64,000 nucleotides of DNA from an uncultured archaeon (lineage in GTDB: Archaea; Aenigmatarchaeota; Aenigmatarchaeia; CG10238-14; SCSR01): positions 40,768 through 104,767 of the forward strand of contig CAZEGD010000002.1 in the NCBI GenBank assembly GCA_964512235.1, in the 5' to 3' direction. Positions 1 through 61,727 of the stretch are shown one piece after another. Made by a program: the position numbers and the translations under genes. The notes under the pieces are model-generated. The model worked only from the letters and a program-made list of their open reading frames with translations, searched no databases and was not told the origin of the DNA. Position 1 is the stretch's first letter; the number at the start of each line of letters is the position of its first letter.

Positions 1-1124
1 CTTGGGAGTTTGCATACGTCATGGATACTGTAAAGGAAGAGCGTGCACGCGGTCTGACCATAGACATTATGCACAGGCCATTTGAAACTAAGAATTGGTA
101 TTTCACTGTTATTGATGCTCCTGGACACAGAGATTTCGTTAAAAATATGATTACTGGCGCGAGCCAGGCTGATGCTGCTATATTTGTTGTCTCAGCCAAG
201 CAAGGCGAAGGTATACAAGAGCAGACTAAGGAACATGCTTGGCTTTTGAAGGTGCTTGGTGTAAATCAAATTGTTGTTGTACTGAATAAGATGGATACTA
301 CAAAATACGATGAAAAGAGATTTAACGAAGTTAAGGAAGATGTCATCAAATTGCTCAAGATGATAGGCTACAAAGTCGATGAGATTCCATTCATACCGAT
401 ATCTGGTTATGTAGGTGACAATGTAGTTAAGAAATCTGAAAATATGGCATGGTACAAAGGGCCGACCATTATGGAAGTGCTTGACCAGTACATAAAAGAG
501 CCTGAGAAGCCTATAGACAAACCTTTGAGGTTGCCAATCCAGGGTTCCTATTCGATTACTGGAGTCGGTACAGTACCAGTGGGTCGTGTAGAGACTGGTG
601 TGCTCAAGGTGAATGATAAACTTATTTTCGAGCCTTCGGGTACGCAAGGTGAAGTGAAGAGCATTGAAGTCCATCACCAGCAAATTCAAGAAGCTAAGCC
701 AGGTGATAATGTGGGCTTCAACGTACGCGGCATAAGTAAGAATGATGTCAGGAGAGGTGATGTTGCCGGTCATGTGGACAATCCACCTACGGTTGTAAAG
801 GAGTTCACAGCGCAGATAGTCATATTACAGCATCCAACTGTGGTTACAGCAGGCTATACTCCAGTATTCCACTGCCACACATCATCAATAGCATGCACAA
901 TAAAGGAAATAACTGCAAAAATAGATCCAAAGAGTGGACAAGTTACGCAGGAAAAGCCAGATTTTATAAAGACTGGTGATGTTGCACGTGTAGTGGTCGT
1001 GCCAACTAAGCCGATGGTAATAGAGAAGCAGTCAGACTTCCCACAACTTGCAAGATTTGCTATTCGTGACATGGGAATGACAGTAGCGGCTGGCGTTTGC
1101 TTGGACTTAGTGAAAGCAAAATAA
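1..1124 (+). CDS. tuf: Translation elongation factor 1-alpha, 5'-truncated by the window edge (frame continues upstream: WEFAYVMD...)
   Basis: TIDI...[29 protein letters not shown] motifs; beta-barrel domains II and III; ORF open to position 1. Confidence 0.95.
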
Positions 1125-27026: not shown

Positions 27027-27098
27027 GGGCCGATAGATCAATGGCAGATCGCCACCTTGGCATGGTGGAGGCTCCGGGTTCGAGTCCCGGTCGGTCCA
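27027..27098 (+). tRNA. tRNA-Ala (anticodon GGC)
   Basis: Cloverleaf with G3:U70 alanine identity pair; anticodon loop TTGGCAT; no encoded CCA. Confidence 0.9.
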
Positions 27099-29582: not shown

Positions 29583-29709
29583 GCGGGGGTCGCCTAGTCT
29601 GGTCAATGGCGCGAGGCTTAAGTTTGACTACTTAAGATCTGATAAAATATGATGCAATAAGAAACCTCGTGGCTTAGTGCCTTCGTGGGTTCAAATCCCA
29701 CTCCCCGCA
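29583..29709 (+). tRNA. tRNA-Leu (anticodon UAA) with a ~41-nt intron after position 37 (approx. 29623..29663)
   Basis: Acceptor stem GCGGGGG/TCCCCGC; long variable arm GGCttagtGCC; anticodon loop CTTAAG|intron|A; intron contains ACTTAAG complementary to the loop (bulge-helix-bulge context). Confidence 0.85.
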
Positions 29710-42740: not shown

Positions 42741-42815
42741 GGGGTTGTAGTATAGCTTGGTCTAGTACCTCGGACTCGGGTTCCGATGACTTGGGTTCAA
42801 ATCCCAACAACCCCA
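42741..42815 (+). tRNA. tRNA-Pro (anticodon CGG)
   Basis: Acceptor GGGGTTG/CAACCCC; anticodon stem TCGGA/TCCGA; loop CTCGGGT; T-loop TTCAAAT. Confidence 0.88.
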
Positions 42816-43782: not shown

Positions 43783-44328
43783 ATGATTGATATGATACTT
43801 GTCTGGCAATTCTTTTCTATGTTTGGTAACATAGAATACTGGATAGCGCTGGTTGTCGGTTCTGTGCTGATTTATATAGCGTTACCAAGAAAGGACAAAA
43901 AACACGTTTCGTGGATAGTGTTTTCACTAATACCTGCAGCAATTTTAGCTTTCCAAACTGCCTATTTTTTGAAGCTTTGGTTTCAAGTGCCTAGACCTTG
44001 TTTAGGACTAATCGGCTGCCCAGGTTCATATTCCCTTCCCAGTAACCACGCGTCCATAATGTTTGCGGCTGCTGTTGTTATAGTGTTAAACATGAAAAAA
44101 CGTTTAGTGCAGATTGCTGCTATTGTTTTGGCTGTCCTGGTTTCGCTTTCACGTATAGCTTTGAATTACCATACTCCGTTGGACATAATAGTCGGATCTT
44201 TGATAGGTGTATTTAGTGGAGTTATAATCCAGAAAGTATATCAGAATATAACATTGTCATATTTTGAAAAAATCTCGTCTAAACGTCGCTCGTCAAAGCG
44301 TGGTCTGTCTAGACTTCTTGGGGTTTAG
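43783..44328 (+). CDS. PAP2-family (type 2 phosphatidic acid phosphatase) membrane phosphatase
   Basis: PAP2 motifs KxxxxxxRP-like VPRP, PSNHA, SRIALNYHTPLD. Confidence 0.75.
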   Translation: MIDMILVWQFFSMFGNIEYWIALVVGSVLIYIALPRKDKKHVSWIVFSLIPAAILAFQTAYFLKLWFQVPRPCLGLIGCPGSYSLPSNHASIMFAAAVVIVLNMKKRLVQIAAIVLAVLVSLSRIALNYHTPLDIIVGSLIGVFSGVIIQKVYQNITLSYFEKISSKRRSSKRGLSRLLGV

Positions 44329-46485
44329 CTTACTGTCAGTCTTTTCTCCAAGCTGGTCTTTTATCTGCACGGCTATATTCGGTCCTATTATTTTCTGGAG
44401 ACTAGATAATGGAATTTTTCTCAAGGCACTTATCGATTTTAAGTCTGCCTTATACAACCTACGCGCACGTACTCTGCCTATATTCTTTAGCTTCACCAAT
44501 GGCAGTATCTCTTTACGGACACCGTATTTTAGCCTAGTACGCACTTTTCTTATGTCTTTCAGCATCTCTTTTTTCCCAAGCAACAGGGCGAACTCTTGCA
44601 TCGCATATATCAACCAATCAGCAATGTTGAGCCTGCCACGCAACTCGCCTGGGGCAACACGAAACTTGCCTATGATATCGTCCTCGCTCATCTCGTTTGT
44701 CCAAGCTTCGAATAGTTTAGCGGTCTTCACGCTACGCAGGAAATCGTCAAATTCTAAGTCCCACTCTTCCGGAGCCTCGCAGAGAAACTCTGGTTCATGA
44801 GCCACTATGAATTCATTAAGTTCAGCAAAGTCGCCTGTGCGTACCCTGAGCATTGGCCGCATCTCCAGAGTACTGGAAATCGCATGTAGGAAGCTGAAAT
44901 GCTTCACATGTTTCTTGTCAGCTACCTCTATATTTTTGATGAAATTGTGCGCTGTCAATGGATCTATGTACAAATCTGATACTCGTTTTCCTAGTTTGGT
45001 GGGCTTCAGCTCTCCTCCTTTAGCAACTATGAATCTCCACGATTTCAGCATGTCTACCATTTCATAGAGTTTGCTCTCTATTGCAGACATGCTACCGTAT
45101 TGAAAAGCATAGAATGTTTGAGCGAAGAAGTTCATGAGTGTTTCCTCGGAGTTGACAAAGCTGCTTGCTATCAGGGCAAGTGTATGCATTCTAAGCACTG
45201 GCTCGACTGCAAGCTTTGAGTATATGTCTTCCGGCTCGCCAAGTATGAATCTTTCTACGAGGACGTCTGCCTCCTCTTCGGTTCTTGATATGATTATGGA
45301 TTCGCCAAAACTGTCAAACTGTGGCCTGCCAGCCCTACCTATGAACTGTTTGTATTCGAGTACTGGTATGTATGCTGCACCATGACCAGGATAGTAGCGT
45401 TTGGTATCTCGTATGACGACTCGGAATGCCGGCAGGTTTATACCCATCGCGAGCGTTGGTGTGGCTGTAATTATTTTTATCAAGCCTTTTCTGAAATTTT
45501 CCTCTATCAACCTTCGCTGCTTGCGGAGCAGGCCAGCATGGTGGAAAGCCATACCAGATTTTATACATGACGCCAATTTTTTACACTGTCTAGTCGGAGA
45601 TTCCAATACATTAAGTATGCTGTCTGCGGTCTTTGCAAGTTGGGACTGTTCTGCCTTTCCTATGTAAGACTTGCAAGCATGACTTAGCTTCTCAGCTAGA
45701 CTTTCTGCATTCCGCCTCGTTCCTACAAAAAATATTGCCTGCTTACGCATTTGCAAAGTCTGCTTGGCTGTCTCTATGTCCGGTTCTCCTGACGCCAATT
45801 CATAGTTGTCTTTGTTATAAAATTTTATCGAAGAGTTGTATGTTATACCTTCGTATAACTTAACCGGGCGGAATTCGCTTGTTACCAGCTCTGCCTTAAT
45901 CCAATCTGCTATGTCTTTTGCATTGCTGATGGTTGCGGAAAGGGCTATAGTTTGAGCGTCTGGCACTAGTTTTTTCAATCTTGTCAGAAGTATCTCCAGT
46001 GTTGGCCCCCGTGAAAAGTCATTCAGCAGATGGATTTCGTCCACTATCACAAGTCCTATGTCCGTCACCCAAAAGGAACCATGGCGTATGAGCGAGTCTA
46101 GCTTCTCTGTCGTGCATACTATTACATCATAATCAGCCAGCCAAGGACCTTTGGAATCCAAATTCCCAACAGATATCGCGACTTTGTACTTCTCAAAAAA
46201 CTTCTTGTAGTATGCATATTTCTCGTTTGCCAGCGCAACCAACGGTACAATATATACGCATTTCTTCCTCTTTTCCAGAGTCTTGACCATCGCCAAAGTC
46301 GCTACAAGCGTCTTCCCAGCCGCTGTAGGCACGGAAAGGACTAGGTTTTTACCATCAAGCACACCTGTCTTGATTGCATCTACTTGTGGTGGATAGAGAC
46401 TGGTTATCTTCTCTGACTTGATTCTATCTATAAAATGTTGGGGGATATTGAATTTTTCCAGATCTTGTACATTCATAACAGACAA
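44293..46485 (-). CDS. hel308: Ski2-like DNA helicase Hel308 (Hjm)
   Basis: Walker A PTAAGKT; DEIH box; ratchet and HhH C-terminal domains; 730 aa. Confidence 0.9.
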   Translation of the reverse strand: MSVMNVQDLEKFNIPQHFIDRIKSEKITSLYPPQVDAIKTGVLDGKNLVLSVPTAAGKTLVATLAMVKTLEKRKKCVYIVPLVALANEKYAYYKKFFEKYKVAISVGNLDSKGPWLADYDVIVCTTEKLDSLIRHGSFWVTDIGLVIVDEIHLLNDFSRGPTLEILLTRLKKLVPDAQTIALSATISNAKDIADWIKAELVTSEFRPVKLYEGITYNSSIKFYNKDNYELASGEPDIETAKQTLQMRKQAIFFVGTRRNAESLAEKLSHACKSYIGKAEQSQLAKTADSILNVLESPTRQCKKLASCIKSGMAFHHAGLLRKQRRLIEENFRKGLIKIITATPTLAMGINLPAFRVVIRDTKRYYPGHGAAYIPVLEYKQFIGRAGRPQFDSFGESIIISRTEEEADVLVERFILGEPEDIYSKLAVEPVLRMHTLALIASSFVNSEETLMNFFAQTFYAFQYGSMSAIESKLYEMVDMLKSWRFIVAKGGELKPTKLGKRVSDLYIDPLTAHNFIKNIEVADKKHVKHFSFLHAISSTLEMRPMLRVRTGDFAELNEFIVAHEPEFLCEAPEEWDLEFDDFLRSVKTAKLFEAWTNEMSEDDIIGKFRVAPGELRGRLNIADWLIYAMQEFALLLGKKEMLKDIRKVRTRLKYGVRKEILPLVKLKNIGRVRARRLYKADLKSISALRKIPLSSLQKIIGPNIAVQIKDQLGEKTDSKLNPKKSRQTTL

Positions 46486-46546
46486 AATTAGGATAATAAT
46501 GAATAAATAGGATTGTCGGACTGGGTGAGAAAAAGATAATTATATT

Positions 46547-46573
46547 AATCAGCGCCTATAGAGACCGCTGATT
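46547..46573. terminator. Hairpin (AATCAGCG-11 nt-CGCTGATT) just 3' of the PRC-barrel gene
   Basis: 8-bp inverted repeat. Confidence 0.35.
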
Positions 46574-46583
46574 GTAAGAAAGC

Positions 46584-46850
46584 TTAGATTAGTTCATTTT
46601 CACTGACGATTACGAAGTCGCCTATGCTCCTCACTGCACTGAATGGTATCAGTGATCTCCCCCTGTCATCTCCCTTGAGGTTAAGATCGCTTAGATGCTT
46701 CGTACTCTGCTCCACAATCAGGTTGAGGAGCTCTCCGCTCTCTGTTATGAAGTCTATGTTACTCACGACACCGAACTTTCTTCCAGTCTCTTCGCTGACT
46801 ATAGTCTTTCCAACTATGTCTGCGGCTCTTATTCTACTTTGGGCCATCAA
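46584..46850 (-). CDS. PRC-barrel domain protein
   Basis: 88 aa, PRC-barrel pattern (DIVGKTIVSEETGRKFGVVSNIDFITESGELLNLIV). Confidence 0.7.
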   Translation of the reverse strand: MMAQSRIRAADIVGKTIVSEETGRKFGVVSNIDFITESGELLNLIVEQSTKHLSDLNLKGDDRGRSLIPFSAVRSIGDFVIVSENELI

Positions 46851-46910
46851 AAATCACCTAATTATTATTCGTCTTTGATATTTTTAACCTTTATTCGTAT
46901 TAAATTAAGT

Positions 46911-47435
46911 ATGGGTCGCTGTTTTGTTGGTATAATGGTACCTGAACATATTAGAGATGTTGCTATATCTCTACAAAAGAGGCTTGCTGAGTTCGGGATG
47001 AAATGCAAGTTTGTAGAACCTAAAAATATGCATATATGCCTCTCTTTTCTTGGAGAGGTTGACGATAGGAAAATAGAAGATTTGAAGAGAGCGTTGGATG
47101 CTGTTGCTGAGCGGTATAAAAGTTTTGATATAAAAATTGGCAAGATGAAGTTCATTCCAAGCGAGAACTACATAAGGGTAATAGTTCTTAGTGTAGATGA
47201 CTTACTAGAAAGGATGAGGAAAGCTGTTGTGGAAGCCGTAGGCGGTGATTCTAAGCCACCTCATTTAACGCTTTGCCGTGTGAAGTATGTGGACGATAAG
47301 AAAAGATTTGTGAATGAGTTTGGTGAAGTTGTTTGTGGCGAGACTTTTCGTGTGGGCAGCATACAGTTGATTAAGAGCGAACTCCAAAGGAGTGGTCCAG
47401 TTTATACTGTTATACATGAGAGTAGACTATCTTGA
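46911..47435 (+). CDS. thpR: RNA 2',3'-cyclic phosphodiesterase (2H phosphoesterase, ThpR/LigT family)
   Basis: Two H-x-T/S-x motifs (MHICLSF and PHLTLCRV); start at MGRCFVGIMVP. Confidence 0.8.
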   Translation: MGRCFVGIMVPEHIRDVAISLQKRLAEFGMKCKFVEPKNMHICLSFLGEVDDRKIEDLKRALDAVAERYKSFDIKIGKMKFIPSENYIRVIVLSVDDLLERMRKAVVEAVGGDSKPPHLTLCRVKYVDDKKRFVNEFGEVVCGETFRVGSIQLIKSELQRSGPVYTVIHESRLS

Positions 47436-47852
47436 TTTCCATTTTTTCCTCTTTAAGAATCTCTTCCTATTCAATTCTTTACCATAGTGGTTGGCGTTGT
47501 TGATAAACTTAGCGACTTCCTTTAGTTCCTCTATTTTTGTTATCTTCAAGGATCTTTTGAAAAATTTACGCACTCTCCTTTCAATCTTGACATGGGAGGA
47601 ACGTAGGAGTTTTTCTAATTCTTCTGCCTTTCTTTTTCCATCTCTATCAAAGTCTGTGAGTATCACCACATTTTTTGAGTCCTCCAATTTCTCAGCAACA
47701 TTTTCCAATGATTGCCCCGAGATTGAGAATACATTCTTGATGCCTAAACCGGATAGTGCCTTTTTATCCCTCTTCCCCTCTACAACAAAAATAAAATCAT
47801 TTGTTCTCTCGACTATTCTTTCTAAAGAGTATATCTGCTTCGGTCTGAGCAT
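47427..47852 (-). CDS. Small Toprim-domain protein (COG1658-like)
   Basis: EGKRD ... LTDFDRDG Toprim acidic motifs. Confidence 0.65.
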   Translation of the reverse strand: MLRPKQIYSLERIVERTNDFIFVVEGKRDKKALSGLGIKNVFSISGQSLENVAEKLEDSKNVVILTDFDRDGKRKAEELEKLLRSSHVKIERRVRKFFKRSLKITKIEELKEVAKFINNANHYGKELNRKRFLKRKKWKSR

Positions 47853-47892
47853 TATTTCACCAATATGTTACACTTTCTGATACTGTAATGGT

Positions 47893-48684
47893 TCAGATTA
47901 TCTCTTCTAGAATATCTCTCTCTGTTATTATTCCTTCCAGTTTGTCTTCATCCACAACGAGTATGCCGCCAACATCTTTGTCTTTCATTAGTTTTAGCAC
48001 ATCCGACAAGTCCTTGTCTTTATCTATTGTATAGATATCTTTGATAATAATGGCATCCATAGATTCGTCCATTGCCTCCTGACTATACTTCTTCTCGTGT
48101 ATGTATCTTATCAAGTCTGCTACTGTTGTTATGCCTACTAGCTTGCCATCATCGACTACTGGCAATCTTCTATAACGTGTATTCACAACAGTCTTTAGGC
48201 AGTCGTATATAGAGATGTTAGATGAAATGAAAAATGGTTTTTTTGTCATACACTCCTCAATTTTTATGTTAAAGTCAATGTTTGAAAACCGCTTGACAAA
48301 ATCGCGTTCACTGATTACGCCGACAAGTTTCTCACCCTCAACAATAGGAAACCCGCCACGTCTTGAGAGTTTGAATTTTTGAAGGATAAAATCAAGCGTA
48401 TCGCCAATTTCGCAAAAAACTACATCCCTTACCATAATCGTCGATATTTTCTCTTCAAAATTAGTCTTCTTTAAAAAAGTATCAAGAATGTCAGAAGTTG
48501 TTAGGATGCCAATGAGTTTACGGGATTTAGAAGTGATTGGCATTCTTCTATAGTTTGTCTCTACAATCTTTTCAATAACTTCTGAGATTGAAAATTTTTC
48601 TTCACAGTAGATAGGATTCATATTCGCAATTTCAGATACCCTTTTAAACCTATCAAGGCCTGCATCTTCAAGTTTTATAGTCAT
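47893..48684 (-). CDS. CBS-domain protein (four CBS repeats)
   Basis: Repeated CBS pattern (..VGILT.SDIL.., ..VGVISERDF.., ..VGITTVADL.., ..EGIITERDIL). Confidence 0.8.
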   Translation of the reverse strand: MTIKLEDAGLDRFKRVSEIANMNPIYCEEKFSISEVIEKIVETNYRRMPITSKSRKLIGILTTSDILDTFLKKTNFEEKISTIMVRDVVFCEIGDTLDFILQKFKLSRRGGFPIVEGEKLVGVISERDFVKRFSNIDFNIKIEECMTKKPFFISSNISIYDCLKTVVNTRYRRLPVVDDGKLVGITTVADLIRYIHEKKYSQEAMDESMDAIIIKDIYTIDKDKDLSDVLKLMKDKDVGGILVVDEDKLEGIITERDILEEII

Positions 48685-49220
48685 TCTCCCAATTCATCTC
48701 GGCAGTGTTCACACAACCATTTACCCTGCACATTTCTCAATTCTTCAAAATAATCCCCACAAGAATCACATATTCCTGATGTGGATGGTTCGACTATTTT
48801 CGTAGTCATATCCCTCAGTTTTATTTTATACTCCAACAGGTCTACCATTTCAGGTGACGCACGAGCCACGTCAGAAAGTTCAATTATACCGATAATCTTC
48901 CCGCTTTCTATAACTAATAATCGTTTTATTCTATTCTTCTTCATCTTTCTCGCAGCTTCTAAGACATCCTCATTCGGACCGATTGTAACGATTGGTTTGG
49001 ACATGACCTTTTCGACTTTGATTGAGGATGGTTTTTTGTTTTTTGCAATCACTTGTTTAATCAAATCGCTATCTGTAATTACGCCTACAGGGTTGCCCTT
49101 TTTAGTCACTATCAGAGAATATCTTTTATTCTTTCTCATTATTCCTCCAGCTACTTTTGTGCTTTGATTAATACCAATTGTCAACGGTTTTTGCATTATT
49201 TCTTTGACTTTCAAAACCAT
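48681..49220 (-). CDS. CBS-pair protein with a C-terminal zinc ribbon
   Basis: Two CBS repeats plus CDSCGDYF...CEHC. Confidence 0.75.
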   Translation of the reverse strand: MVLKVKEIMQKPLTIGINQSTKVAGGIMRKNKRYSLIVTKKGNPVGVITDSDLIKQVIAKNKKPSSIKVEKVMSKPIVTIGPNEDVLEAARKMKKNRIKRLLVIESGKIIGIIELSDVARASPEMVDLLEYKIKLRDMTTKIVEPSTSGICDSCGDYFEELRNVQGKWLCEHCRDELGE

Positions 49221-49246
49221 TCTATCACCTTAATAATATTGAATCT

Positions 49247-49594
49247 TCATACTATAAATTTTCTCAAAAATTCTTCTAGTGGTTTCCCATTTTTAGGCGT
49301 GACTTTCTTCTTTGGAGGCAGAATGCGTATGTTCCCATAACCAAAATCTACGACAAGAAAGAAAGGGAACTTCTCTAATTTTTTCTCCATATATTCATAG
49401 TAGTAGAATGTCTTCTTTTTTGTCGACTTCACTTGCGAGAGTATGCATTTTCCTGACTTTAAACAAATTAAATCTGCTTCACCCAAACTTGCTCCTGCAC
49501 GTATGACCTTCCATCCAGCAGATTCAAACCTTTGTCTTATCTTTCTCTCAACCCTATAACCACGCATTCTGTTTTTGCCACGTCTGGAAGACAT
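49247..49594 (-). CDS. hjc: Holliday junction resolvase Hjc
   Basis: GYRVERKIRQRFESAGWKVIRAGAS..EADLICLKSGKCILSQVKST matches the Hjc catalytic core (E..D..E.K). Confidence 0.8.
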   Translation of the reverse strand: MSSRRGKNRMRGYRVERKIRQRFESAGWKVIRAGASLGEADLICLKSGKCILSQVKSTKKKTFYYYEYMEKKLEKFPFFLVVDFGYGNIRILPPKKKVTPKNGKPLEEFLRKFIV

Positions 49595-49651
49595 AAAATA
49601 AATGTATTTTAGTGAATAATTAAATATGATTTACTATAAGGTGTTGTAAAA

Positions 49652-50329
49652 GTGAAAATACTTGCAGTGTCTGACATACACAATGATGTAGAAATGCTCA
49701 TGCCTTATCTTGAGAAGGCTGCTGAATTAAATGTGGATGTTGTTGTGTGCCCAGGCGATTTCACTGATTTTAACTTACCTAAAGGGTTTACTAGAATTGA
49801 AATGGCAAAGCTCATTCTTGAAGAATTAAAAAGTCTTGGCAAACCTATAGTTGCCGTGCCGGGGAATCAAGATAAAGAAATATTGAATTTGTTGGAAAAG
49901 GATGGTGTGAGTATTCATGGCAGCGGTAAGGTTATAGATGGTGTTGGCTTCTATGGTTTTGGTGGTGCAAAGACACCATTTAACACCTCATATGAGCCCG
50001 ATGAAAGTGAAATAGATGCTGGTTTGAGGAAAGCGTATGAAGACGTAAAAAACATAAAAATAAAGGTCCAAGTGACACACAATCCTCCTGTAAACACAAA
50101 ACTCGATATACTTCCTTCCGGTGCTCATATTGGCTCGGAAGTCGTGAGAAAATTTATTGAAGATAGGGGGCCTGTGGCAGCAATCTGTGCGCATGTACAT
50201 GAGTCACGTGGTACAGATAGTATAGATAATTGTAAGGTAATAAATAGTGGACGGTTTCCAGAAGGATATTGTGGTTTGATAGAGATTAAAGATGGTTTGG
50301 CAAGTGTGAAAATAGTCAGTTTGATATAG
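49652..50329 (+). CDS. Calcineurin-like metallophosphoesterase
   Basis: DIHND...GDFTD...GNQD...H..H motifs. Confidence 0.8.
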   Translation: MKILAVSDIHNDVEMLMPYLEKAAELNVDVVVCPGDFTDFNLPKGFTRIEMAKLILEELKSLGKPIVAVPGNQDKEILNLLEKDGVSIHGSGKVIDGVGFYGFGGAKTPFNTSYEPDESEIDAGLRKAYEDVKNIKIKVQVTHNPPVNTKLDILPSGAHIGSEVVRKFIEDRGPVAAICAHVHESRGTDSIDNCKVINSGRFPEGYCGLIEIKDGLASVKIVSLI

Positions 50330-50450
50330 GTTATGAAAAACCAAAAACGTTTTTTATATCTGGGAGTCAAATAGATAATTACCTTTTGGGGTTGTTTTAG
50401 TTTTTTTTCCAAAATGTGATAATGTTGGGAATTAGTGGAAACGTAGTGGT

Positions 50451-50846
50451 TTGATGTCTGAAGCGGAAGTTAAATTCCAGATACAAGAAGAAATAAAGGA
50501 TCTGAAGTCTCTCAATGTTGGTGTTGTTTTGGAGTTGGCTGAGAGGTTAGATTTTCTAGATGTGCAAATTTTGCGCAAGTTTTATATGACAGGGAAGGAG
50601 TTCCCACACGACACACAACCATTCTGCTTTCCCATGTTGTTCCAGGAGATGAAGGTTAGCCACCACCTTAAGATAGGTATTGAGGCGTTGAGGAAGAGGT
50701 TGAATAATTTTGTGGGGATGGGGCTGCTCGAGAAAATCGAAAATAGCAACCCAACAAACTATATGCCCATAGACGGCAAAGAACAGTTAGCTCGTGGTGT
50801 GGTGGTCAAGTTCTTTCTCATACATGGTCTTACAAAATTCATATAA
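50451..50846 (+). CDS. Hypothetical protein, possible winged-helix regulator
   Basis: 131 aa; VQILRKFY...LRKRLNNFVGMGLLEKI. Confidence 0.4.
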   Translation: MMSEAEVKFQIQEEIKDLKSLNVGVVLELAERLDFLDVQILRKFYMTGKEFPHDTQPFCFPMLFQEMKVSHHLKIGIEALRKRLNNFVGMGLLEKIENSNPTNYMPIDGKEQLARGVVVKFFLIHGLTKFI

Positions 50847-50915
50847 CCCTCTATAGTGTTATGAAGATTTCGTATATGTGTTTAAAATTATCTAAATAGT
50901 TGTTCGGAAAAATAT

Positions 50916-51147
50916 TTATGGGTGTTCAGAGTATTTTTTATGGGTGTTCCAATTGTTTTGTATGATGTTTCCAACGAAAAAACAAAATGTTTCACATCAA
51001 AAACCATGTAGGTGTGTGGTGTTTGTGTTTACAGGGGTTGGTGGTGTTACAAACAACTAACAACTATAACAATGTTATAATAAATATAATATAAACAATA
51101 AAACACACCACAACAATAAAACACACACATATACAAAACCCAACAAG
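50916..51147. promoter_or_regulatory. Structured non-coding region with three blocks (see evidence)
   Basis: Direct repeat TTATGGGTGTTC x2 (50916, 50938). GT-rich block (51009..51048) followed by an AT spacer and an AC-rich block with AACAATAAAACACAC x2 (51095..51147). Strong strand-compositional asymmetry and an imperfect long inverted repeat. Confidence 0.4.
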
Positions 51148-51215
51148 AAAGATTTCAAAAAACAACTTAAGTTTATTAGCAAACGTTTATTTTTATAACT
51201 AGTCATAAAAAATAT

Positions 51216-51473
51216 ATGAAGCGAGGAAGACCAAGCACACGTAAGAAAATTACACCACTAATATTGAAACATTTAGAAAATTCGAAACTCCCATTAACAA
51301 TATCTTCACTGGCTAGAATAATATCTAAAGATGTTGGATATACAGTCAGTTGGAACACAATAGAAAAGTACCTTAGAGAGAATATAGAGACCAACAAAAT
51401 ACAAGCCATATCTCTACCACACTCTAAAAAAGAGGGAAAGAGTGGGCTTACGGTCTACGTCCTAAAGAAATAA
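51216..51473 (+). CDS. Small winged-helix DNA-binding protein (85 aa), first gene of the wHTH-DP1like-polB cluster
   Basis: ITPLILKHLENSKLPLTISSLARIISKDVGYTVSWNTIEKYL plus a wing. Confidence 0.5.
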   Translation: MKRGRPSTRKKITPLILKHLENSKLPLTISSLARIISKDVGYTVSWNTIEKYLRENIETNKIQAISLPHSKKEGKSGLTVYVLKK

Positions 51474-51491
51474 TACCAACACCGTGGTTTT

Positions 51492-52562
51492 ATGGGAAAA
51501 AACAATATAATAAAGAAATTTCTAAGCGTTGGGGTGCAATTGAGTAAGGATGCATTAGACCATTTTATAATTAACGAAAAAGACATAGATGTATTCATTG
51601 AAAGATCTGGAAAAATAAAAGAAAGGCCGAAAATAGTCACATTATCTACAGTTCAAAGAGTCCTTAGTACACCAAACGGCCTCTCCATTGGTGTGAAAGC
51701 AACCAGTTTTGTAGCCGAAGGTGAAAAGGTATCAATTAGAAGTCTTGTCAATGATTTGACAAACAAATACAACCTACTCAAACACATTCTGGAAGGTAAG
51801 AATGGGTTGAGTAAATTGATATCTATAAATAAAATTTCACCAAATACTAAAGAATTTTCTATAATATGTATGGTTAATGATGTGAATAGAAATTCAGTTA
51901 CCGTGGAAGACACAACTGGTGAACTCACACTATATTTTGATGATATAAAAGACACAATTCTACCAGACGACGTGATTGGATTGATGTGTGAACAGAAGGG
52001 GGGTAGATTTCTCATAAAGGACATAATGTGGCCTGACATTCCACTAAAGAGGGGAGTAAAGAAGTCAAAAAAGAAAATCAACTGTATTTTTCTTGGCACT
52101 GAGGTATCAGAAATATATATTGAAAACGGTGAGGCGATACTCTTTGCATTTGGCTCGCCGAGAAAGTTGAATCTAAACAATGTAAAGAGTACAGAACACA
52201 TATTCTTGGACGAAAACATGAAGGAAAAGAAAAAATCAGTCTTTAAACCACCCATCATCGTAGAACTAAATGGTATAAATGTTGTAATTCTCAGCACAAA
52301 CCTGATTCAAAAGTATAAAAAATATTGGAAGAAAGAGGAGGACATAATAAAAAATCTTTTGAAGAGGAGAGATATAGATCCCATTCAAGACATTACAGGT
52401 CAACGTTACACATCCTCTGTGCTAGAGTCACCTCCAGATATAGTTGTGGTTGCAGACGAAGGCACAAAGAGTTTAAACTATAAGGGAACTACAATACTAT
52501 CGGTCTCAAAGAATAGCGGCTATTATATAGATTTGAACACAAGAGAAGTTAAAAAGATATAA
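51492..52562 (+). CDS. DNA polymerase B-subunit-like protein (PolD small subunit DP1 / eukaryotic Pol alpha-delta-epsilon B-subunit homolog) with a degenerate, truncated phosphoesterase domain
   Basis: N-terminal helical domain parallels DP1 (IIKKFLSVGVQLSKDALDHFI... vs FVKSLLKANYLITPSAYYLL...). OB-fold block SIICMVNDVNRNSVTVEDTTGELTLYF...LPDDVIGLMCEQKGGRFLIKDIMWPDIP parallels DP1 TIIGLVNS...EIEDLTGKVKVFL...LPDAVVAFKGVYSKRGILYANKFYLPDVP. The metallophosphatase motif I (ISDIHVGS in DP1) reads INCIFLGTEV, so catalytic residues are lost, and the C-terminal part is ~130 aa shorter. Confidence 0.65.
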   Translation: MGKNNIIKKFLSVGVQLSKDALDHFIINEKDIDVFIERSGKIKERPKIVTLSTVQRVLSTPNGLSIGVKATSFVAEGEKVSIRSLVNDLTNKYNLLKHILEGKNGLSKLISINKISPNTKEFSIICMVNDVNRNSVTVEDTTGELTLYFDDIKDTILPDDVIGLMCEQKGGRFLIKDIMWPDIPLKRGVKKSKKKINCIFLGTEVSEIYIENGEAILFAFGSPRKLNLNNVKSTEHIFLDENMKEKKKSVFKPPIIVELNGINVVILSTNLIQKYKKYWKKEEDIIKNLLKRRDIDPIQDITGQRYTSSVLESPPDIVVVADEGTKSLNYKGTTILSVSKNSGYYIDLNTREVKKI

Positions 52563-52579
52563 AATAATAGATTTTATCT

Positions 52580-55270
52580 ATGGAGACTCTCTTTCAGGTT
52601 CTAGATTCAGACTATATAATGGTAAACAACAAACCTGTGATCAGGTTGTTCGGAAAAGAAAAGAGCGGGAGGACAATATGTGCTTTCCTAGAAGGTGAAC
52701 TACCATATTTCTTTATTCTCGTGAACGATGAAGAAAAAGCAATAAAATTCATCGAAAAAGAGTTTTCAAACCTCGTTGTGAAAATAGATACAGTTAAAAA
52801 ATACCTTCCAATGGGGTTTCAGAAGACCAAAACAAAGCTGCTTAAAATAATATTGAAAGAGCCATCAAAGGTACCATCAATCCGCGATGAACTTAAAAAA
52901 AAGAAATTTGTAGATCAGATATTTGAGGCAGATATACTTTTCAAATATAGGATGATGGTCGACAAGGGTATACGTGGGATGGGTTGGGTAAAAGTTAAAG
53001 GTTCAGCAGTTAACACACACACTGTTAAAACAGATTGTTGCATACAGGCGAAAACACTGAACGTTGTAGATAATGAAGACAACGCACCATTGAGATACTT
53101 GAGTATAGACATCGAGACGCATTTTAGTGATGTAATTGGACCTAGCCCGAGAAAGGACAAAATTATAATGGTGAGTCTATATTTTTCTCCATCATACAGA
53201 GGTAAAGATTCGCTCGTCCTTATTTCGAAGAACACCAAGGACAACAAAGATACAATCTGTTGTGAAAACGAGAAGAAAATGTTGCAAGAATTCCTGAAGA
53301 TTGTAGATGCGTTTGACCCAGACATAATCCTCGGGTACAATATAAACAACTTCGACTTTCCATTCATTATGGACAGACTTAGGATAAACAACTTACCAAG
53401 AACCATGGGCAGATGCAACATAAAGAATGCTGTCTCAAGGAAGTTTGGCATGAGGTTTAGAAATTCAGTCACAGGTAGAGTAATAGTAGATGTATACGAA
53501 CTCATCAAAGAATCCGCTAGCAAAGGATTCATGAGAATGAAGAGGTATGGTCTTGGGGACGTATCTAAAAATCTGATAAACGAGGAAAAAATAAAGATTG
53601 CACATAGTGAAATTGTAAAATATTGGAACGGTGATGAAAAGCATCTGGAGAAGCTGATAGAATATTCAAGAAAGGACTCATACCTAGCCATGAAGTTATT
53701 GTTGGAAAAAGAACTGTTGGATAAATTTTTCGAGCTTTCTAAGGTCTCGGGCATACTCTTGCAGGATGTATTGTCGAGTGGTGAAGCTATGCGCGTGGAA
53801 AATTTGGTTTTGGAAGAATTTAACAAGAGAGATTATGTGATACCATGCAAACCAGATAATGCAGAAATGGAGAGGAGGAGTGTCGAAAGAGAAAAGAAAG
53901 CGCTAAAAGGAGCTCTTGTACTCGAACCGGATGCAGGTCTGCATACAACACCTATAGTCTATCTTGATTTCAAGAGCATGTACCCATCTATAATTATTTC
54001 ATATAATATTTGCCCGACTACTTTCCTACAACCTAACCAGAAACCAAAATCAATCAAAACACCATACAACACTAGATTTACAGACAGGACTGTGAAAGAA
54101 GGCATACTACCCAAAATACTCACAGACTTGATAAAAACAAGGGATGTCGTAAAAAAAGAGATTAAAAGGACTAAGAGCGAAGAAAAGAAGAAAAGTTTGG
54201 ACGCTAAACAATATGCACTAAAAGTTATGGCTAATGCCTTTTATGGCTATACCGGATACGTACGTGCTAGGCTCTATGTTTTAGACATAGCAAACACTAT
54301 AACAGCATCTGGACGCTATCTTATCCAAAAGACAAGAGACATAGTTGAAGAAGGGTCAAAATACAAAGTTGTATACGGTGATACAGATTCGATAATGGTA
54401 AAGGTAGGTGTCGAAGATTTGGAGGAAGCATTCAAAATCGGTAGAGAGATTGAGAAAAAAATAAATGATGAATTGAAAGGTATAGTGGAAATGAAAATAG
54501 AGTCCGTCTTCAAGTCCTTAGTGATACTGACGAAAAAAAGATATGCAGGAATGAGCTATGAAAAATATGATGGTGAATGGAAAGAAAAAATGATGATGAA
54601 AGGTATAGAGACTGTCAGAAGGGACTGGTGCGATCTTGTCAGTGAGACATTGTTCACTGTCTTGGAAATTATACTAAAAGAACAGAACCCCAAAAAAGCC
54701 CTTAATCATGTGAAAAGTGTTATGGCCAAGTTGCAAAGGAACGAAGTCCCAGTGGAAAAGCTAGTTATAACGAAGAGCATGACAAAACCTATAAGGTCGT
54801 ACAAAGGAATACAGCCACATATAGAACTCGTTAAAAAATTGAGAAAGCGTTCTCCAACAGAAGCTCCTGGAGTGGGTGACAGAATAGGCTATGTAATAGT
54901 CCAAGGATTACAAATAATTTCTAATAGGTCAGAAGACCCCGATTATATTAAAGCGCACAATATGAAAGTAGATTCTAAATATTACATGGAAAGCCAGTTG
55001 CTACCGCCACTTGAAAGGTTGTTTGAAGTTATCGGAATTGACAAGACTGAGCTTCTGGGCAGAGGCAAGCAGCTACTGCTTGGCGATGCAATAAAAAATG
55101 GAAGAAACAAGAAAATTGTAGACTCTTTGAGCAAATCAGATGGTGTTATATGTAGCAAGTGTAATAAAACGTTTAGGCGCCCCCCACTTTCAGGTAAGTG
55201 TACAACATGTAGCGGAGAGATATTATTCTTTTCTGGAAATGTTAGGTCAAAACACTTCAGTCCATCCTAA
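52580..55270 (+). CDS. polB: Family B DNA polymerase with intact exonuclease and polymerase motifs and a C-terminal Cys4 zinc-finger module
   Basis: Exo I YLSIDIET, Exo II YNINNFDFPF, Exo III YSRKDSYLA; Pol A DFKSMYPSII, Pol B KVMANAFYGYTG, Pol C YGDTDS; C-terminal CSKCNKTFRRPPLSGKCTTCSG. Confidence 0.93.
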   Translation: METLFQVLDSDYIMVNNKPVIRLFGKEKSGRTICAFLEGELPYFFILVNDEEKAIKFIEKEFSNLVVKIDTVKKYLPMGFQKTKTKLLKIILKEPSKVPSIRDELKKKKFVDQIFEADILFKYRMMVDKGIRGMGWVKVKGSAVNTHTVKTDCCIQAKTLNVVDNEDNAPLRYLSIDIETHFSDVIGPSPRKDKIIMVSLYFSPSYRGKDSLVLISKNTKDNKDTICCENEKKMLQEFLKIVDAFDPDIILGYNINNFDFPFIMDRLRINNLPRTMGRCNIKNAVSRKFGMRFRNSVTGRVIVDVYELIKESASKGFMRMKRYGLGDVSKNLINEEKIKIAHSEIVKYWNGDEKHLEKLIEYSRKDSYLAMKLLLEKELLDKFFELSKVSGILLQDVLSSGEAMRVENLVLEEFNKRDYVIPCKPDNAEMERRSVEREKKALKGALVLEPDAGLHTTPIVYLDFKSMYPSIIISYNICPTTFLQPNQKPKSIKTPYNTRFTDRTVKEGILPKILTDLIKTRDVVKKEIKRTKSEEKKKSLDAKQYALKVMANAFYGYTGYVRARLYVLDIANTITASGRYLIQKTRDIVEEGSKYKVVYGDTDSIMVKVGVEDLEEAFKIGREIEKKINDELKGIVEMKIESVFKSLVILTKKRYAGMSYEKYDGEWKEKMMMKGIETVRRDWCDLVSETLFTVLEIILKEQNPKKALNHVKSVMAKLQRNEVPVEKLVITKSMTKPIRSYKGIQPHIELVKKLRKRSPTEAPGVGDRIGYVIVQGLQIISNRSEDPDYIKAHNMKVDSKYYMESQLLPPLERLFEVIGIDKTELLGRGKQLLLGDAIKNGRNKKIVDSLSKSDGVICSKCNKTFRRPPLSGKCTTCSGEILFFSGNVRSKHFSPS

Positions 55271-56819
55271 GGGATTTGTAGAAGGGATTCGTTAAAATAC
55301 GATTCAGTATAATACCTAATATCAATGCTATTCCCAAACCTCTCAAAGGCGTAAACAGCGTAATAAAACCAACTACAGAAGCAACTATAATTAACTTCTT
55401 CATTGTTTTTCCTTTCCTACCGCTTTTTGAAAGTGTAATCATATCAAACATACCAATTGCCAAAAACATACACACACCAATCAATGCATATGTATCAATG
55501 ACCCATGATGTAAAGTTTTGTATTATTGCAAAAATACCAAAAACATAAACGACTTCCAAAATAGTCATTACAATCATAACTACACTTACTTTCACCTTTT
55601 TCCTAGAAACGAGAATGGCTGTAAGCGACAAAAACGCTACAGCAAAAGGTACCATCCATATCAGCCACCAGTTAGTTGGTTGAGTTCTGACAGTCGTTTC
55701 TATTTCGAATTTCGATGGAAGTTCCCCAGCTATTGCAAAACCCACAGAAGTCTTCTTAGTTACAACATCATTCATACTGTTTCCAAACCCAACAATAAAA
55801 GCCGTGCTTATGTTTTGTCCAGCTTGCTCTACTAGTATTGGTATTCCAATACCGTTTATCTTCTTTCCATCAACATAATACTCCCACACACCATTCAAGA
55901 AAGTCTGCGGTCCCAATAAAACTGTACTAAGTCCATTGCTTATCTTTCCAAATTTTTCTCCAGACTCTCTATCAATTTCAACTGGGGATGTTGATCTGTA
56001 TAGATTTACTGACGGTTCGAATGATACACTGTCAGCACCCTCAATTTCACCAATTATGTTATCATTATCAAAAATTAAAGAGTTCAAAACCAATGAGGTA
56101 TTCGTACCATTTACAAAGACAAATTTTACATTTTCCAAATAGAACTCTCCACCAACTTCAATTTCACTTCCATTAACAATTATAATACCGTTCAAAAATC
56201 CTATAGAATATCTAGAACTACCTATTTTTACTTCACTATTGCCATTTCTAACTTCAAGTGTCTGCCTTATTACACCTTCTATCCTACCCTTCTTTATCAA
56301 TAGACCCAAGTTCTTGTTTGGCGATGACGATATGATAAATTTTTCATTTTCCACTTCGACTGTACCATCGATTATTCCCAGAGCCGCCATACGCGACTGT
56401 ATTATTTCTTTCGTTTCTTGCAGTTCACTCTCAGATAGCATAGTATCAGGTACAACAGTCATTTCAACTCCACCACCTATCGACCTCTCAAATCTGAGGC
56501 CAGAAGATACCATATCAGTCACACCCACCACAATATCACCATCTGATAGAGCTGTGCACCCGCCAGGACCATTATTGACGACCATCGGATAATATCTATC
56601 TCTTTCGACGCCGGATACAAAATTGTTGAACTCTTCAGCACTCTTGACTACTTTACCACCTATCTGCGTTATCACGTCACCTTCTGAAAGGTCACCACAA
56701 CCATCATTTCTGACAGAAGTAACAACTACACCACTCTTTCTAAAGGCCAAAGGAGACAAAACAAAGAAAATTGAGACAGCGAGCAGTATGAGAATAAAAT
56801 AAAATCTAAGTCCTTTCAT
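55257..56819 (-). CDS. Membrane protein with an N-terminal signal anchor, PDZ-like extracellular domains and a C-terminal multi-TM region
   Basis: GDLSEGDVITQIGGKVV and SDGDIVVGV PDZ-like segments; ~5 C-terminal TM helices. Confidence 0.55.
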   Translation of the reverse strand: MKGLRFYFILILLAVSIFFVLSPLAFRKSGVVVTSVRNDGCGDLSEGDVITQIGGKVVKSAEEFNNFVSGVERDRYYPMVVNNGPGGCTALSDGDIVVGVTDMVSSGLRFERSIGGGVEMTVVPDTMLSESELQETKEIIQSRMAALGIIDGTVEVENEKFIISSSPNKNLGLLIKKGRIEGVIRQTLEVRNGNSEVKIGSSRYSIGFLNGIIIVNGSEIEVGGEFYLENVKFVFVNGTNTSLVLNSLIFDNDNIIGEIEGADSVSFEPSVNLYRSTSPVEIDRESGEKFGKISNGLSTVLLGPQTFLNGVWEYYVDGKKINGIGIPILVEQAGQNISTAFIVGFGNSMNDVVTKKTSVGFAIAGELPSKFEIETTVRTQPTNWWLIWMVPFAVAFLSLTAILVSRKKVKVSVVMIVMTILEVVYVFGIFAIIQNFTSWVIDTYALIGVCMFLAIGMFDMITLSKSGRKGKTMKKLIIVASVVGFITLFTPLRGLGIALILGIILNRILTNPFYKSLRMD

Positions 56820-59457: not shown

Positions 59458-60453
59458 ATGAAAATTCTAGTAACAGGCGGAGCCGGATTTATGGGGTCTT
59501 GGCTAGTGGACGAACTCATCAGCCGCGGCCACAAAGTCGTTAGCGTTGACGATCTAAGCGGCGGATTCATGCGTAACGTAAGCAAAAAATGCAAATTCAT
59601 CAAAATGGATCTACGCAACACCAAGAAAGTTTTCAAAGTCACAAAAGGAGTTGATATAATATTTCACCTTGCTGCATATGCAGCAGAAGGCCAGTCTGTG
59701 TTCTCACCGATAGAAATAAACGACATAAACATAAAGCCGATGAACAATCTACTCGTAGCGGCCGTGAACAATGGTATCAAGAAGTTCATTTTCACTTCTT
59801 CCATGGCAGTCTATGGTGACCAGAAGCCACCATTCAATGAAAAGATGGCTAGAATGCCGGAAGACCCATACGGCTGCGGTAAATCATACTGTGAGCGTAT
59901 GCTTGAAATTTTTGCAGAGACATATGGATTTAATTATACTATCGTAAGGCCACACAATGTGTACGGACCAAGGCAGAATATATCAGATCCTTACAGAAAT
60001 GTGCTAGGCATATGGATAAATAGGATCATGCGAAGAAAGCCACCACTCATCTATGGCGACGGAAAACAAACTAGAGCATTTTCTTACATAGAAGATGTCA
60101 CACCACCGCTTGCAAATGTTGGGTTCTTTAGGAAGGCAAACGGCCAGATAATAAACTTGGGCAGCGATGAAGTGATGACTATAAATAAAGCATGCAGAGT
60201 CGTACTGGATAAAATGGACAGTAAATTAAAGCCAAAGCATGTAGAGTCAAGACCATGTGAAGTGAAGCACGCACATTGCACAATCAAAAAATCTCAAAAG
60301 ATTTTGGGGTACAGGACAAAGCATAAACTGAAAGATGGGATAAAGAAAATGGTAGAATGGGCTAGAAAGACCGGCCCGCAGAAGCCAACCTACAGGTTGC
60401 CATTGGAGATAACAAAAAGAGCGCCAAAAGTATGGTATAAAAAAATGATTTAA
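59458..60453 (+). CDS. NAD-dependent nucleotide-sugar epimerase/dehydratase (extended SDR)
   Basis: VTGGAGFMGSWLV; catalytic YGCGK; 331 aa. Confidence 0.8.
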   Translation: MKILVTGGAGFMGSWLVDELISRGHKVVSVDDLSGGFMRNVSKKCKFIKMDLRNTKKVFKVTKGVDIIFHLAAYAAEGQSVFSPIEINDINIKPMNNLLVAAVNNGIKKFIFTSSMAVYGDQKPPFNEKMARMPEDPYGCGKSYCERMLEIFAETYGFNYTIVRPHNVYGPRQNISDPYRNVLGIWINRIMRRKPPLIYGDGKQTRAFSYIEDVTPPLANVGFFRKANGQIINLGSDEVMTINKACRVVLDKMDSKLKPKHVESRPCEVKHAHCTIKKSQKILGYRTKHKLKDGIKKMVEWARKTGPQKPTYRLPLEITKRAPKVWYKKMI

Positions 60454-61727
60454 TTTGTTTCTTTGACTACACCGACAGCTATTGTAACGCCACTATCTCT
60501 TATGAGTATTCTTCCCAATTGTGGGGTTTCAGTCTGCTTTTCTATCACAAAAGGCTCCGTAGCGACAAACTTTACAGTACCAGCATCGTCCATAGAAAGC
60601 ACTTTTACTTTTCCTCCGGAAACCTTTCCACTTCTAGGATCCATCTTGTTGATGATTTTTTCAGCCTTACATTGCACATTAGCTGTACCACACCTTATTA
60701 TATAATCTCTACCTTCTACGACTTCACCGTCATCTTCGAGTATGAATATCTCTGCACTGAACTCTTTGGAAACATTCGGCACATCTTTACCACTACTGAA
60801 TACATAACCGCGTTTGATTTCTGATATGCCGATGACTTTGATTCCAATATTCTCACCTGCTACAGCCCGCACCTTTTCTTTATTCCACATTTGTATCGAT
60901 TCAACAGTACCACGCTCCCCAGAAGGGCTAACAACTACTTCGTCGCCAACTTCTACTTTACCCAGTTCTACCCTTCCGACTATTACTCTCTCTCCTCCAA
61001 CCTCGTAAGAGTCTTGAACAGGTATCCTTAAAGGACTGTCTGCATAATTCTTTGGCTCAATTGTAAAATTGTCTAGGGCTTCAACTAATGTCGGCCCGTC
61101 ATACCATTCCATTCTTTCAGACTTCTTTAAGACATTGTCACCTTCCATGGCCGATACTGGAACGATTTGTACATTCTCTGTAACGTATCCCATAGATTCG
61201 AGCATATCCTTTATATCGGACGAAATTATGTAAAATATTTCCTTGTCATAATCTACAGTATCCATCTTGTTGACGGCAACGACAAGCCTGTCTATACCCA
61301 TCTCTTTTGCCAGCCATGCATGTTCTTTACTCTGGCTTTGCACACCTTCGCTAAGCTTTGCGGATACTACGAACATAGAGATTTCTCCATAAGACGCGCC
61401 GCTGATCATATTCTTTATGAACTCTTTATGCCCGGGGCAATCTATGAAGTTGTACAAATACTTTTCACTTTTAAACGGGACCTGTACAGTATCTATGGTC
61501 ATCGCCTCCTCCCGCTCTTCTTGAAAGGTATCAAGGATGAATGCATATTCAAACTTTTCTTTATTGAGTTTTTTGAGCACAGATTTTATTTCTTCCAACC
61601 TGTCAGGTTTCAGCTGTCCAGAGTCGTATATAATCCTACCTATGAGCGTAGATTTTCCATGGTCTATGTGACCTATTGCAACAATGTTTACGTTTGGTAG
61701 TTTATTTTTTTCCATCACAACCACCAA
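60450..61727 (-). CDS. cysN: Sulfate adenylyltransferase subunit 1-like GTPase (CysN-like EF-1alpha/EF-Tu paralog)
   Basis: G1 GHIDHGKSTLIGRII, G3 DCPGH, G4 VVAVNKMDTVDYDKEIF (closer to the CysN consensus than to EF-1alpha); sits in an operon with cysD. Confidence 0.7.
   Translation of the reverse strand: MVVVMEKNKLPNVNIVAIGHIDHGKSTLIGRIIYDSGQLKPDRLEEIKSVLKKLNKEKFEYAFILDTFQEEREEAMTIDTVQVPFKSEKYLYNFIDCPGHKEFIKNMISGASYGEISMFVVSAKLSEGVQSQSKEHAWLAKEMGIDRLVVAVNKMDTVDYDKEIFYIISSDIKDMLESMGYVTENVQIVPVSAMEGDNVLKKSERMEWYDGPTLVEALDNFTIEPKNYADSPLRIPVQDSYEVGGERVIVGRVELGKVEVGDEVVVSPSGERGTVESIQMWNKEKVRAVAGENIGIKVIGISEIKRGYVFSSGKDVPNVSKEFSAEIFILEDDGEVVEGRDYIIRCGTANVQCKAEKIINKMDPRSGKVSGGKVKVLSMDDAGTVKFVATEPFVIEKQTETPQLGRILIRDSGVTIAVGVVKETN

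Follow-up and report, generated by a model that had tools for sequence, protein, structure and literature searches.

Aenigmatarchaeal genomes have been described in which a family-B DNA polymerase (PolB) may stand in for DP2, the large subunit of archaeal DNA polymerase D (PolD), and here we describe a locus of this kind: a PolB gene directly preceded by a gene for a homologue of the small PolD subunit, DP1, in 64,000 nucleotides of an uncultured archaeon (GenBank assembly GCA_964512235.1, contig CAZEGD010000002.1, positions 40,768 to 104,767 of the forward strand; this whole stretch is referred to as the window). Kazlauskas et al. 2020 defined a PolB group, 'B6-aenigma1', in Aenigmarchaeota whose C-terminal domain (CTD) is like zinc finger III of DP2, the element on which DP1 docks in PolD, and found that a clade of inactive DP1 proteins ('Aenigma_GB_GCA_002789635-like') co-occurs with B6 PolBs (PMC7544198). 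DP2 is absent from most Aenigmarchaeota, and its replacement by a B6 PolB was proposed (PMC7544198). In a 2025 study in Nat Ecol Evol, Aenigmatarchaeota and Baldrarchaeia were the only archaeal lineages without DP2 that nevertheless keep DP1, and in both DP1 binds a fusion of PolB with a DP2 CTD, as judged by yeast two-hybrid assays and AlphaFold3 models (PMC12680538). The aenigmatarchaeal DP1 bound the PolB that carries the CTD and did not bind CTD-less PolBs; a second group, 'B6-aenigma2', was reassigned to Baldrarchaeia contamination (PMC12680538).

The window contains one more example of this already published arrangement (PMC7544198, PMC12680538). We read the gene pair as the replicative polymerase locus of its lineage, encoding a two-subunit holoenzyme made of a PolB tailed with a DP2-type zinc finger III and a catalytically dead DP1-like subunit, and we place the probability of this reading at roughly 0.88. 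For the window pair it is based on homology, gene linkage, and experiments made at the level of the lineage: homologies, motif states, folds, adjacency, and conservation were computed here, and physical interaction and the absence of DP2 come from the literature on the lineage. The genes and domains of the pair are the following (aa, amino acids; ORF, open reading frame).

51492..52562, + strand: gene of a catalytically inactivated DP1/B-subunit homologue, 356 aa (ORF list, homology, fold model)
51492..51671, + strand: N-terminal helical domain, DP1-like aa 1-60 (NF003118 alignment, model helices)
51852..52052, + strand: OB fold, aa 121-179, and WPDIPLKR junction, aa 180-187 (model, DP1 alignment)
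52077..52559, + strand: shortened remnant of a phosphoesterase fold, aa 196-356 (motif table, alignment with the DP1 phosphoesterase domain, fold match)
52580..55270, + strand: family-B DNA polymerase gene, 896 aa (Pfam, solved-structure matches, motif location)
52916..53518, + strand: 3'-5' exonuclease domain, PolB aa 113-313 (Pfam, motifs)
53759..55033, + strand: polymerase domain, PolB aa 394-818 (Pfam, motifs)
55064..55267, + strand: short C-terminal domain, PolB aa 829-896 (alignment of the window and 24 loci)
55151..55210, + strand: zinc ribbon C858-x2-C861-x12-C874-x2-C877 (match to DP2 zinc finger III)

The 356-aa protein truly belongs to the DP1/B-subunit superfamily and is by sequence nearest to DP1, because both its family profile and its predicted structure match DP1 first and B-subunits thereafter. 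Searches with the single sequence gave weak matches (Pfam DNA_pol_E_B, E=0.13; DP1 of 6knb in a phmmer search of the Protein Data Bank, E=0.4), and detecting the homology required NCBIfam, a family profile, and structure comparison. The NCBIfam model of the PolD small subunit (NF003118) matches aa 3-201 with E=3.5e-18, and the alignment begins at aa 3 and profile position 5. A search for homologues yielded 122 proteins, 314-406 aa long; those with taxonomic names are mostly from Aenigmarchaeota metagenome-assembled genomes (MAGs), and several carry the JGI annotation 'DNA polymerase II small subunit/DNA polymerase delta subunit B'. The profile of 46 aligned members matches solved DP1 chains with E=1.4e-34 to 5e-29 in two stretches, the OB fold and the phosphoesterase domain, whereas the match of human Pol epsilon subunit 2 to the same profile is weak (E=0.23).

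An AlphaFold2 model of the protein (pLDDT 89.3, pTM 0.77) has P. abyssi DP1 as its top Foldseek match (E=6.6e-18), followed by Pol epsilon p59, Pol delta p50, Pol zeta/Pol31, and Pol alpha p70 (E=1e-14 to 1e-8). Matches over the whole chain (DP1, p50, p59, p70) have TMq values of 0.5-0.63, and isolated OB-fold matches extend to RPA and Stn1/Ten1. The model has helices at residues 3-12, 19-27, 31-39, and 51-58, followed by a five-stranded OB fold (E121-E179). The sequence WPDIPLKR, which joins the OB fold to the phosphoesterase-fold domain, aligns with LPDVP of DP1. A preliminary description of the window had recognized the DP1/B-subunit resemblance and the PDIP junction by eye from the sequence, and both are borne out by these profile and structure comparisons.

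The phosphoesterase domain has lost its catalytic residues. None of the five metallophosphoesterase motifs (DxH, GD, GNHD, H, GHxH) is kept in the window protein: in a register set by motif-keeping family members and solved DP1, motif I (S-D-x-H) reads G202-T203-E204-V205, motif II (G-D) reads G221-S222, motif III (G-N-H-D) reads E241-N242-M243-K244, the His of motif IV is S268, and motif V (G-H-x-H) reads A321-D322-E323. The motifs had been called degenerate before, and all five are indeed replaced. The domain is truncated as well, by ~100 aa relative to P. abyssi DP1 and not by the ~130 aa first proposed, because motif I lies ~160 aa from the C-terminus in the window protein and ~260 aa from it in P. 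abyssi DP1 (an estimate from profile-alignment coordinates). A beta-sandwich core is still predicted in the shortened domain by AlphaFold2, and its calcineurin-like phosphoesterase fold is supported by Foldseek and by the second profile stretch, which reaches the phosphoesterase domain of DP1.

Several residues are invariant among the 46 aligned members (F10, G14, S111-I112, D140, G143, R293, P315-D316, N329-Y330-K331-G332, and R351), and the phosphoesterase remnant keeps the invariant NYKGTTI, PD, and R293/R351, a pattern that points to purifying selection for a function other than catalysis. At ~30% identity, the DP1-like protein is the fastest-evolving product of the gene block in which it lies, compared with 55-65% for PolB, a Hjc-like protein, a phosphoesterase, and a 131-aa ORF. 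Invariant residues combined with fast divergence fit a structural role that was retained after catalysis was lost.

PolB has the complete set of catalytic motifs. Pfam identifies the polymerase domain (DNA_pol_B, 1.8e-119) and the exonuclease domain (exo1, 7e-37). ExoI (SIDIET, aa 175) and ExoII (YNINNFDFPF, aa 253) lie within the aa 113-313 exonuclease stretch and ExoIII (YSRKDSYL, aa 362) just past it, and the polymerase domain contains motif A (DFKSMYPS, aa 463), motif B (KVMANAFYG, aa 548), motif C (YGDTDS, aa 599), and KKRY (aa 652). With all exonuclease and polymerase motifs intact, PolB looks catalytically competent, as had been suggested earlier. Its top solved match is human Pol delta (5e-113), with Thermococcales PolBs near-equal at 2e-110, so score ranking alone leaves the PolB group unsettled. 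The window PolB has no intein; intein/homing-endonuclease domains (PF14528, PF14890) are present in its close homologues P0174 (1335 aa) and P0208 (1251 aa).

The link to PolD lies in the last 68 aa of PolB, which hold one Cys4 module and not a pair of CysA and CysB modules. The zinc ribbon (CSKCNKTFRRPPLSGKCTTCSGEI) matches residues 1122-1148 of P. abyssi DP2 with E=3.7e-5, and DP2 zinc finger III accounts for its only significant matches among solved structures. In addition, the NCBIfam DP2 model matches the PolB tail at profile positions 1041-1069 of 1125 (E=1e-5). The preliminary description had correctly reported a Cys4 module, and the match to DP2 zinc finger III confirms it; its spacing is CSKC-x12-CTTC rather than the CSKCNK-x13-CTTCSG given there. 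The CTD is conserved in the window and in 24 loci, and was found wherever the 3' end of the PolB gene falls within the locus. Between the thumb and the zinc ribbon there is a PIP-box-like sequence, Q831-x-x-L834-x-x-A837-I838 (PolB aa 831-838, window 55070..55093), which reads QTLLKEIF, QLVLSEAF, or similar in other loci and is a possible PCNA-binding motif.

We scanned one genome per species and obtained 30 loci, whose source MAGs are all Aenigmatarchaeota or 'uncultured archaeon'. In all 30, the PolB gene comes directly after the DP1-like gene in the same orientation, with roughly 20-90 nt between them, and locus L033 has the two genes adjacent as well, so the pair is conserved in relatives, a point that the preliminary description had proposed to check. 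In the window the two co-directional genes are 17 nt apart (18 nt had been given before). The main texts of PMC7544198 and PMC12680538 do not mention gene adjacency, an operon, or synteny of the pair. The 30/30 adjacency within a conserved block, the 85-aa gene ahead of the pair, and the graded decay of DP1 are our small additions to the published picture.

Complete motif loss, a shortened domain, and the fastest divergence of the block would also be seen if the 356-aa ORF were a decaying DP1 duplicate that sits beside PolB without meaning, with a normal DP1-DP2 PolD encoded elsewhere in a genome of which we see a 64-kb window. The preliminary description had named such a duplicate as a refuting outcome; we consider it most improbable. 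The ORF is intact, and its confidently modeled product belongs to a family of no fewer than 120 full-length proteins in which some residues are invariant; despite ~30% identity, it adjoins a CTD-bearing PolB in 30/30 loci; and Aenigmatarchaeota are reported to have no DP2 and only this DP1 (PMC7544198, PMC12680538). The 64-kb window encodes no DP2-sized or DP2-like ORF, and its only ORFs of at least 480 aa are those of a metallo-beta-lactamase/RMMBL protein, GluRS, Hel308, PolB, and a SecD-like protein.

The pair is part of a conserved block of ~11 genes (window 44293..56819) that has a replication/repair flavor in Aenigmatarchaeota. Its order is Hel308 (-), a 246-aa gene, two CBS-domain genes (-), a Hjc-like resolvase (-), a 225-aa metallophosphoesterase (+), the 131-aa ORF (+), an 85-aa ORF (+), the DP1-like gene (+), the PolB gene (+), and a SecD-like gene (-). 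The occurrence of this block in more than 20 divergent genomes bears on whether the pair could belong to an integrated virus or mobile element rather than to the host replicase. Kazlauskas et al. suggested a viral or mobile-element origin for PolB groups B4 and B6 from their narrow distribution (PMC7544198), and the inteins in some PolB homologues would suit such an element. The chromosomal block shared by these genomes speaks against it, as do the absence of integrase or terminal-protein genes nearby and the GC content of the pair (0.35-0.37), which is at the low end of the window range (0.33-0.45) and matches that of the immediate neighbors. That the pair belongs to such an element is barely credible; the locus behaves as core chromosomal, and its origin may be an ancient mobile element.

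Compared with the B6-aenigma1 system and its inactive DP1 (PMC7544198, PMC12680538), the window locus differs in nothing essential: it has an intact PolB with a single Cys4 module nearest to DP2 zinc finger III and a co-occurring DP1 with an inactive phosphoesterase domain, its relatives are aenigmatarchaeal, and no DP2 is seen in its 64 kb. Its DP1 falls in a subclade that has lost every motif and carries a further deletion. With archaeal PolD (Pyrococcus abyssi 6T8H, Thermococcus kodakarensis 6KNB) it shares the small-subunit architecture of N-terminal domain, OB fold, and phosphoesterase fold, and the docking zinc finger III sequence is kept almost verbatim in PolB. Unlike PolD, it has a PolB in place of the double-psi beta-barrel core of DP2, the proofreading nuclease of DP1 is dead, and PolB lacks the DP2 CTD's helical part. 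In the Baldrarchaeia (Asgard), PolB3 is likewise fused to a DP1-binding, DP2-derived CTD in a lineage that has no DP2 and keeps DP1 (PMC12680538); the baldrarchaeial CTD, formerly assigned to 'B6-aenigma2', is longer, is eukaryote/DP2-like, and has two motifs, whereas the window CTD is short and has one.

The comparison extends to the eukaryotic replicative polymerases delta, alpha, and epsilon (p125-p50, p180-p70, and p261-p59), which also combine a family-B catalytic subunit bearing a C-terminal zinc module with a B-subunit made of an OB fold and an inactive phosphoesterase domain. In the CTDs of the catalytic subunits of Pol alpha, delta, and epsilon, a helical linker lies between two cysteine modules, CysA and CysB. 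Further likenesses are proofreading by the PolB, the fold match of the B-subunit, and Pol delta as the top solved match of PolB. By contrast, the window PolB has a single Cys4 module, no CysA, and no evidence of an Fe-S cluster, and its B-subunit is by sequence far nearer to DP1; no p66/Pol32-like or p12-like subunits were identified. The preliminary description had offered two names for the locus, a eukaryote-like PolB holoenzyme or a hybrid PolB/PolD accessory arrangement. The idea is supported, and the second wording is the more accurate one, because the small subunit matches DP1 at E=1e-34 and Pol epsilon subunit 2 at E=0.23, and because there is one Cys4 module and not CysA plus CysB.

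These features suggest the following course. A proofreading-proficient PolB would have gained zinc finger III from the C-terminus of DP2; the only DP1 homologue of the lineage, with its nuclease dead and its length reduced, is encoded immediately 5' of PolB. The zinc-ribbon tail of PolB would dock the DP1-like subunit as the DP2 CTD docks DP1 in PolD, in parallel to Pol alpha, delta, and epsilon, whose CysB-containing CTDs bind their B-subunits, and docking would yield a two-subunit holoenzyme. In such an enzyme PolB would perform both synthesis and proofreading. We infer that the DP1-like protein would act as a structural or adaptor subunit only and that its gene and the PolB gene would be co-transcribed, probably together with the 85-aa winged-helix gene on their 5' side.

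Several points weigh against a two-subunit holoenzyme at this locus. The evidence for physical binding is lineage-level and does not come from the window pair (PMC12680538), where, moreover, the aenigmatarchaeal CTD was termed a 'degenerate DP2CTD' with a differing predicted structure. The CTD of the window PolB is minimal (~68 aa) and has no equivalent of the helical bundle that follows zinc finger III in DP2. The absence of DP2 is seen for 64 kb of the genome, and a DP2 may be encoded elsewhere; PolB is a putative member of group B6, with Pol delta and Thermococcales PolB scoring nearly alike; and the archaeon was assigned taxonomically from homologue names and shared synteny.

The lineage-level nature of the interaction evidence and the minimal CTD without the DP2 helical bundle leave room for a DP1-like protein that works independently of PolB, for example as an OB-fold binder of single-stranded DNA or an adaptor for another enzyme, with the zinc ribbon in a different role such as binding DNA or PCNA. 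Zinc ribbons of the same type do occur in RpoP, TFIIE, and other proteins (PMC7544198). We nevertheless regard such independence as very unlikely: the ribbon's only significant solved matches are to the DP1-docking element itself, DP2 zinc finger III, the two genes are strictly linked in 30/30 loci, and DP1 bound CTD-bearing but not CTD-less PolBs in the yeast two-hybrid assays (PMC12680538).

The two-subunit reading bears on the origin of the eukaryotic replicative polymerases, since a eukaryotic design of PolB, C-terminal zinc module, and inactivated DP1-type B-subunit could arise within archaea, by a route in which PolB replaces the DP2 core of PolD; this point was made and partly tested previously (PMC7544198, PMC12680538). 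Details of the locus, namely the operonic linkage, the replication/repair block, the small DNA-binding gene, and the gradient of DP1 decay, could guide choices in reconstitution work.

The gradient emerged from a motif census of 120 members of the DP1-like family, the window protein among them. No motif is kept in 66/120, motifs I, II, IV, and V are kept in 18/120, and all five are kept in 2/120 (P0080 and P0085, in which motif III reads GDHD). Because a minority keeps four or five motifs, the inactivation of DP1 looks graded across the lineage rather than uniform. The DxH, H, and GHxH motifs of P0080 align exactly with the catalytic residues of DP1, and its gene sits in the same conserved block, 5' of an 896-aa PolB gene. 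The window protein stands at the other end, in a subclade (P0001-P0008, 341-361 aa) that keeps no motif and has an additional deletion of ~35-45 aa compared with family members of ~390 aa. Judging from their motifs, DP1s that keep four or five of them may be living intermediates with two potential proofreading nucleases, in which a transition from PolD to a eukaryote-like polymerase is under way. Locus L033 (7001..8170) exemplifies, with P0080 and P0085, these motif-keeping DP1s beside CTD-bearing PolBs.

The gene ahead of the pair encodes a small protein:

51216..51473, + strand: gene of an 85-aa protein with an AT-hook-like sequence and a winged helix (ORF list, homologues, AlphaFold2 model)

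It ends 18 nt before the start of the DP1-like gene, and a TATA-like sequence, TTTATTTTTATAA, lies ~20 nt 5' of its ATG; it is probably the first gene of an apparent three-gene operon (85-aa, DP1-like, PolB). At 21/30 loci, and at L033, it is the gene directly before the DP1-like one. Nearly all of its 42 homologues are exactly 85 aa long, and an N-terminal, AT-hook-like KRGRP is invariant. The protein has no sequence matches to solved structures; its AlphaFold2 model (pLDDT 88.8) is a generic winged helix, which Foldseek matches best to PadR/MarR/Fur-type regulators and replication terminator protein (E~1e-3). Its tie to the polymerase is gene order only. It may serve as a regulator or as an accessory factor that binds DNA, and by analogy with the winged-helix N-terminus of Pol32/p66 it could function as a DNA-tethering or B-subunit-binding subunit. 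Homology to Pol32/p66N as a third subunit is unsupported, with 3e0j chain B (Pol delta p66N) outside the top 50 Foldseek matches. That the 85-aa protein is a third, lineage-specific component of the holoenzyme, or that DP1 inactivation is graded with living intermediates, are two readings that reach past the main texts of PMC7544198 and PMC12680538 and that we jointly hold to be doubtful.

A second phosphoesterase is encoded further upstream:

49652..50329, + strand: 225-aa metallophosphoesterase (Pfam Metallophos, 1.5e-17)

Its motifs are all apparently intact, it is apparently active, and it has weak matches of the YfcE/aq_1956 type. In 24/30 loci it precedes the DP1-like gene by 1-2.5 kb in the same orientation, and with 34-62% identity (mostly 54-62%) it is far better conserved than the DP1-like protein. 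As a candidate for a trans-acting substitute for the lost DP1 nuclease it found no specific support, being a generic phosphodiesterase with no DP1-specific similarity. Its position does not specifically link it to the dead nuclease, because the whole neighborhood of ~11 genes is equally syntenic.

The window is an ordinary chromosome segment of an Aenigmatarchaeota-type DPANN archaeon. Aenigmarchaeota/Aenigmatarchaeota MAGs account for nearly all named homologues of the DP1-like, PolB, and 85-aa proteins and for all phylum-named loci. A few homologues carry other labels: bacterial MAGs (Planctomycetota, Omnitrophica, and WOR-3 on the DP1-like P0064, P0076, and P0109), Bathyarchaeota (PolB homologue P0231), and Methanomethylicia (85-aa homologue P0281); these probably reflect contamination of bins by aenigmatarchaeal contigs. 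The window also encodes aEF-1alpha-type GTPases, Nop5, FtsZ, GluRS, a NucS-like protein, a DHH/DHHA1 protein, and Hel308.

On the 3' side, the PolB gene and the convergent SecD-like gene (55257..56819, - strand) share 14 nt at their 3' ends (55257..55270). Antisense ORFs at 51653..52297 (-) and 52915..53826 (-) were taken to be shadow ORFs of the coding strand. According to Rfam, the 64-kb window holds no rRNA; two ordinary tRNAs are located at 27027..27098 and 42741..42815, and a third tRNA match (29583..29709, + strand) covers 127 nt, which fits an intron-containing archaeal tRNA. Two genes encode GTPases of the EF-1alpha/EF-Tu family (21..1124, + strand; 60450..61727, - strand), one of which may be a paralogue, e.g., aRF3/Hbs1-like or SelB-like. 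The called start of the former may sit too far downstream, because in its Pfam alignment the GTP_EFTU profile is matched from position 44 onward.

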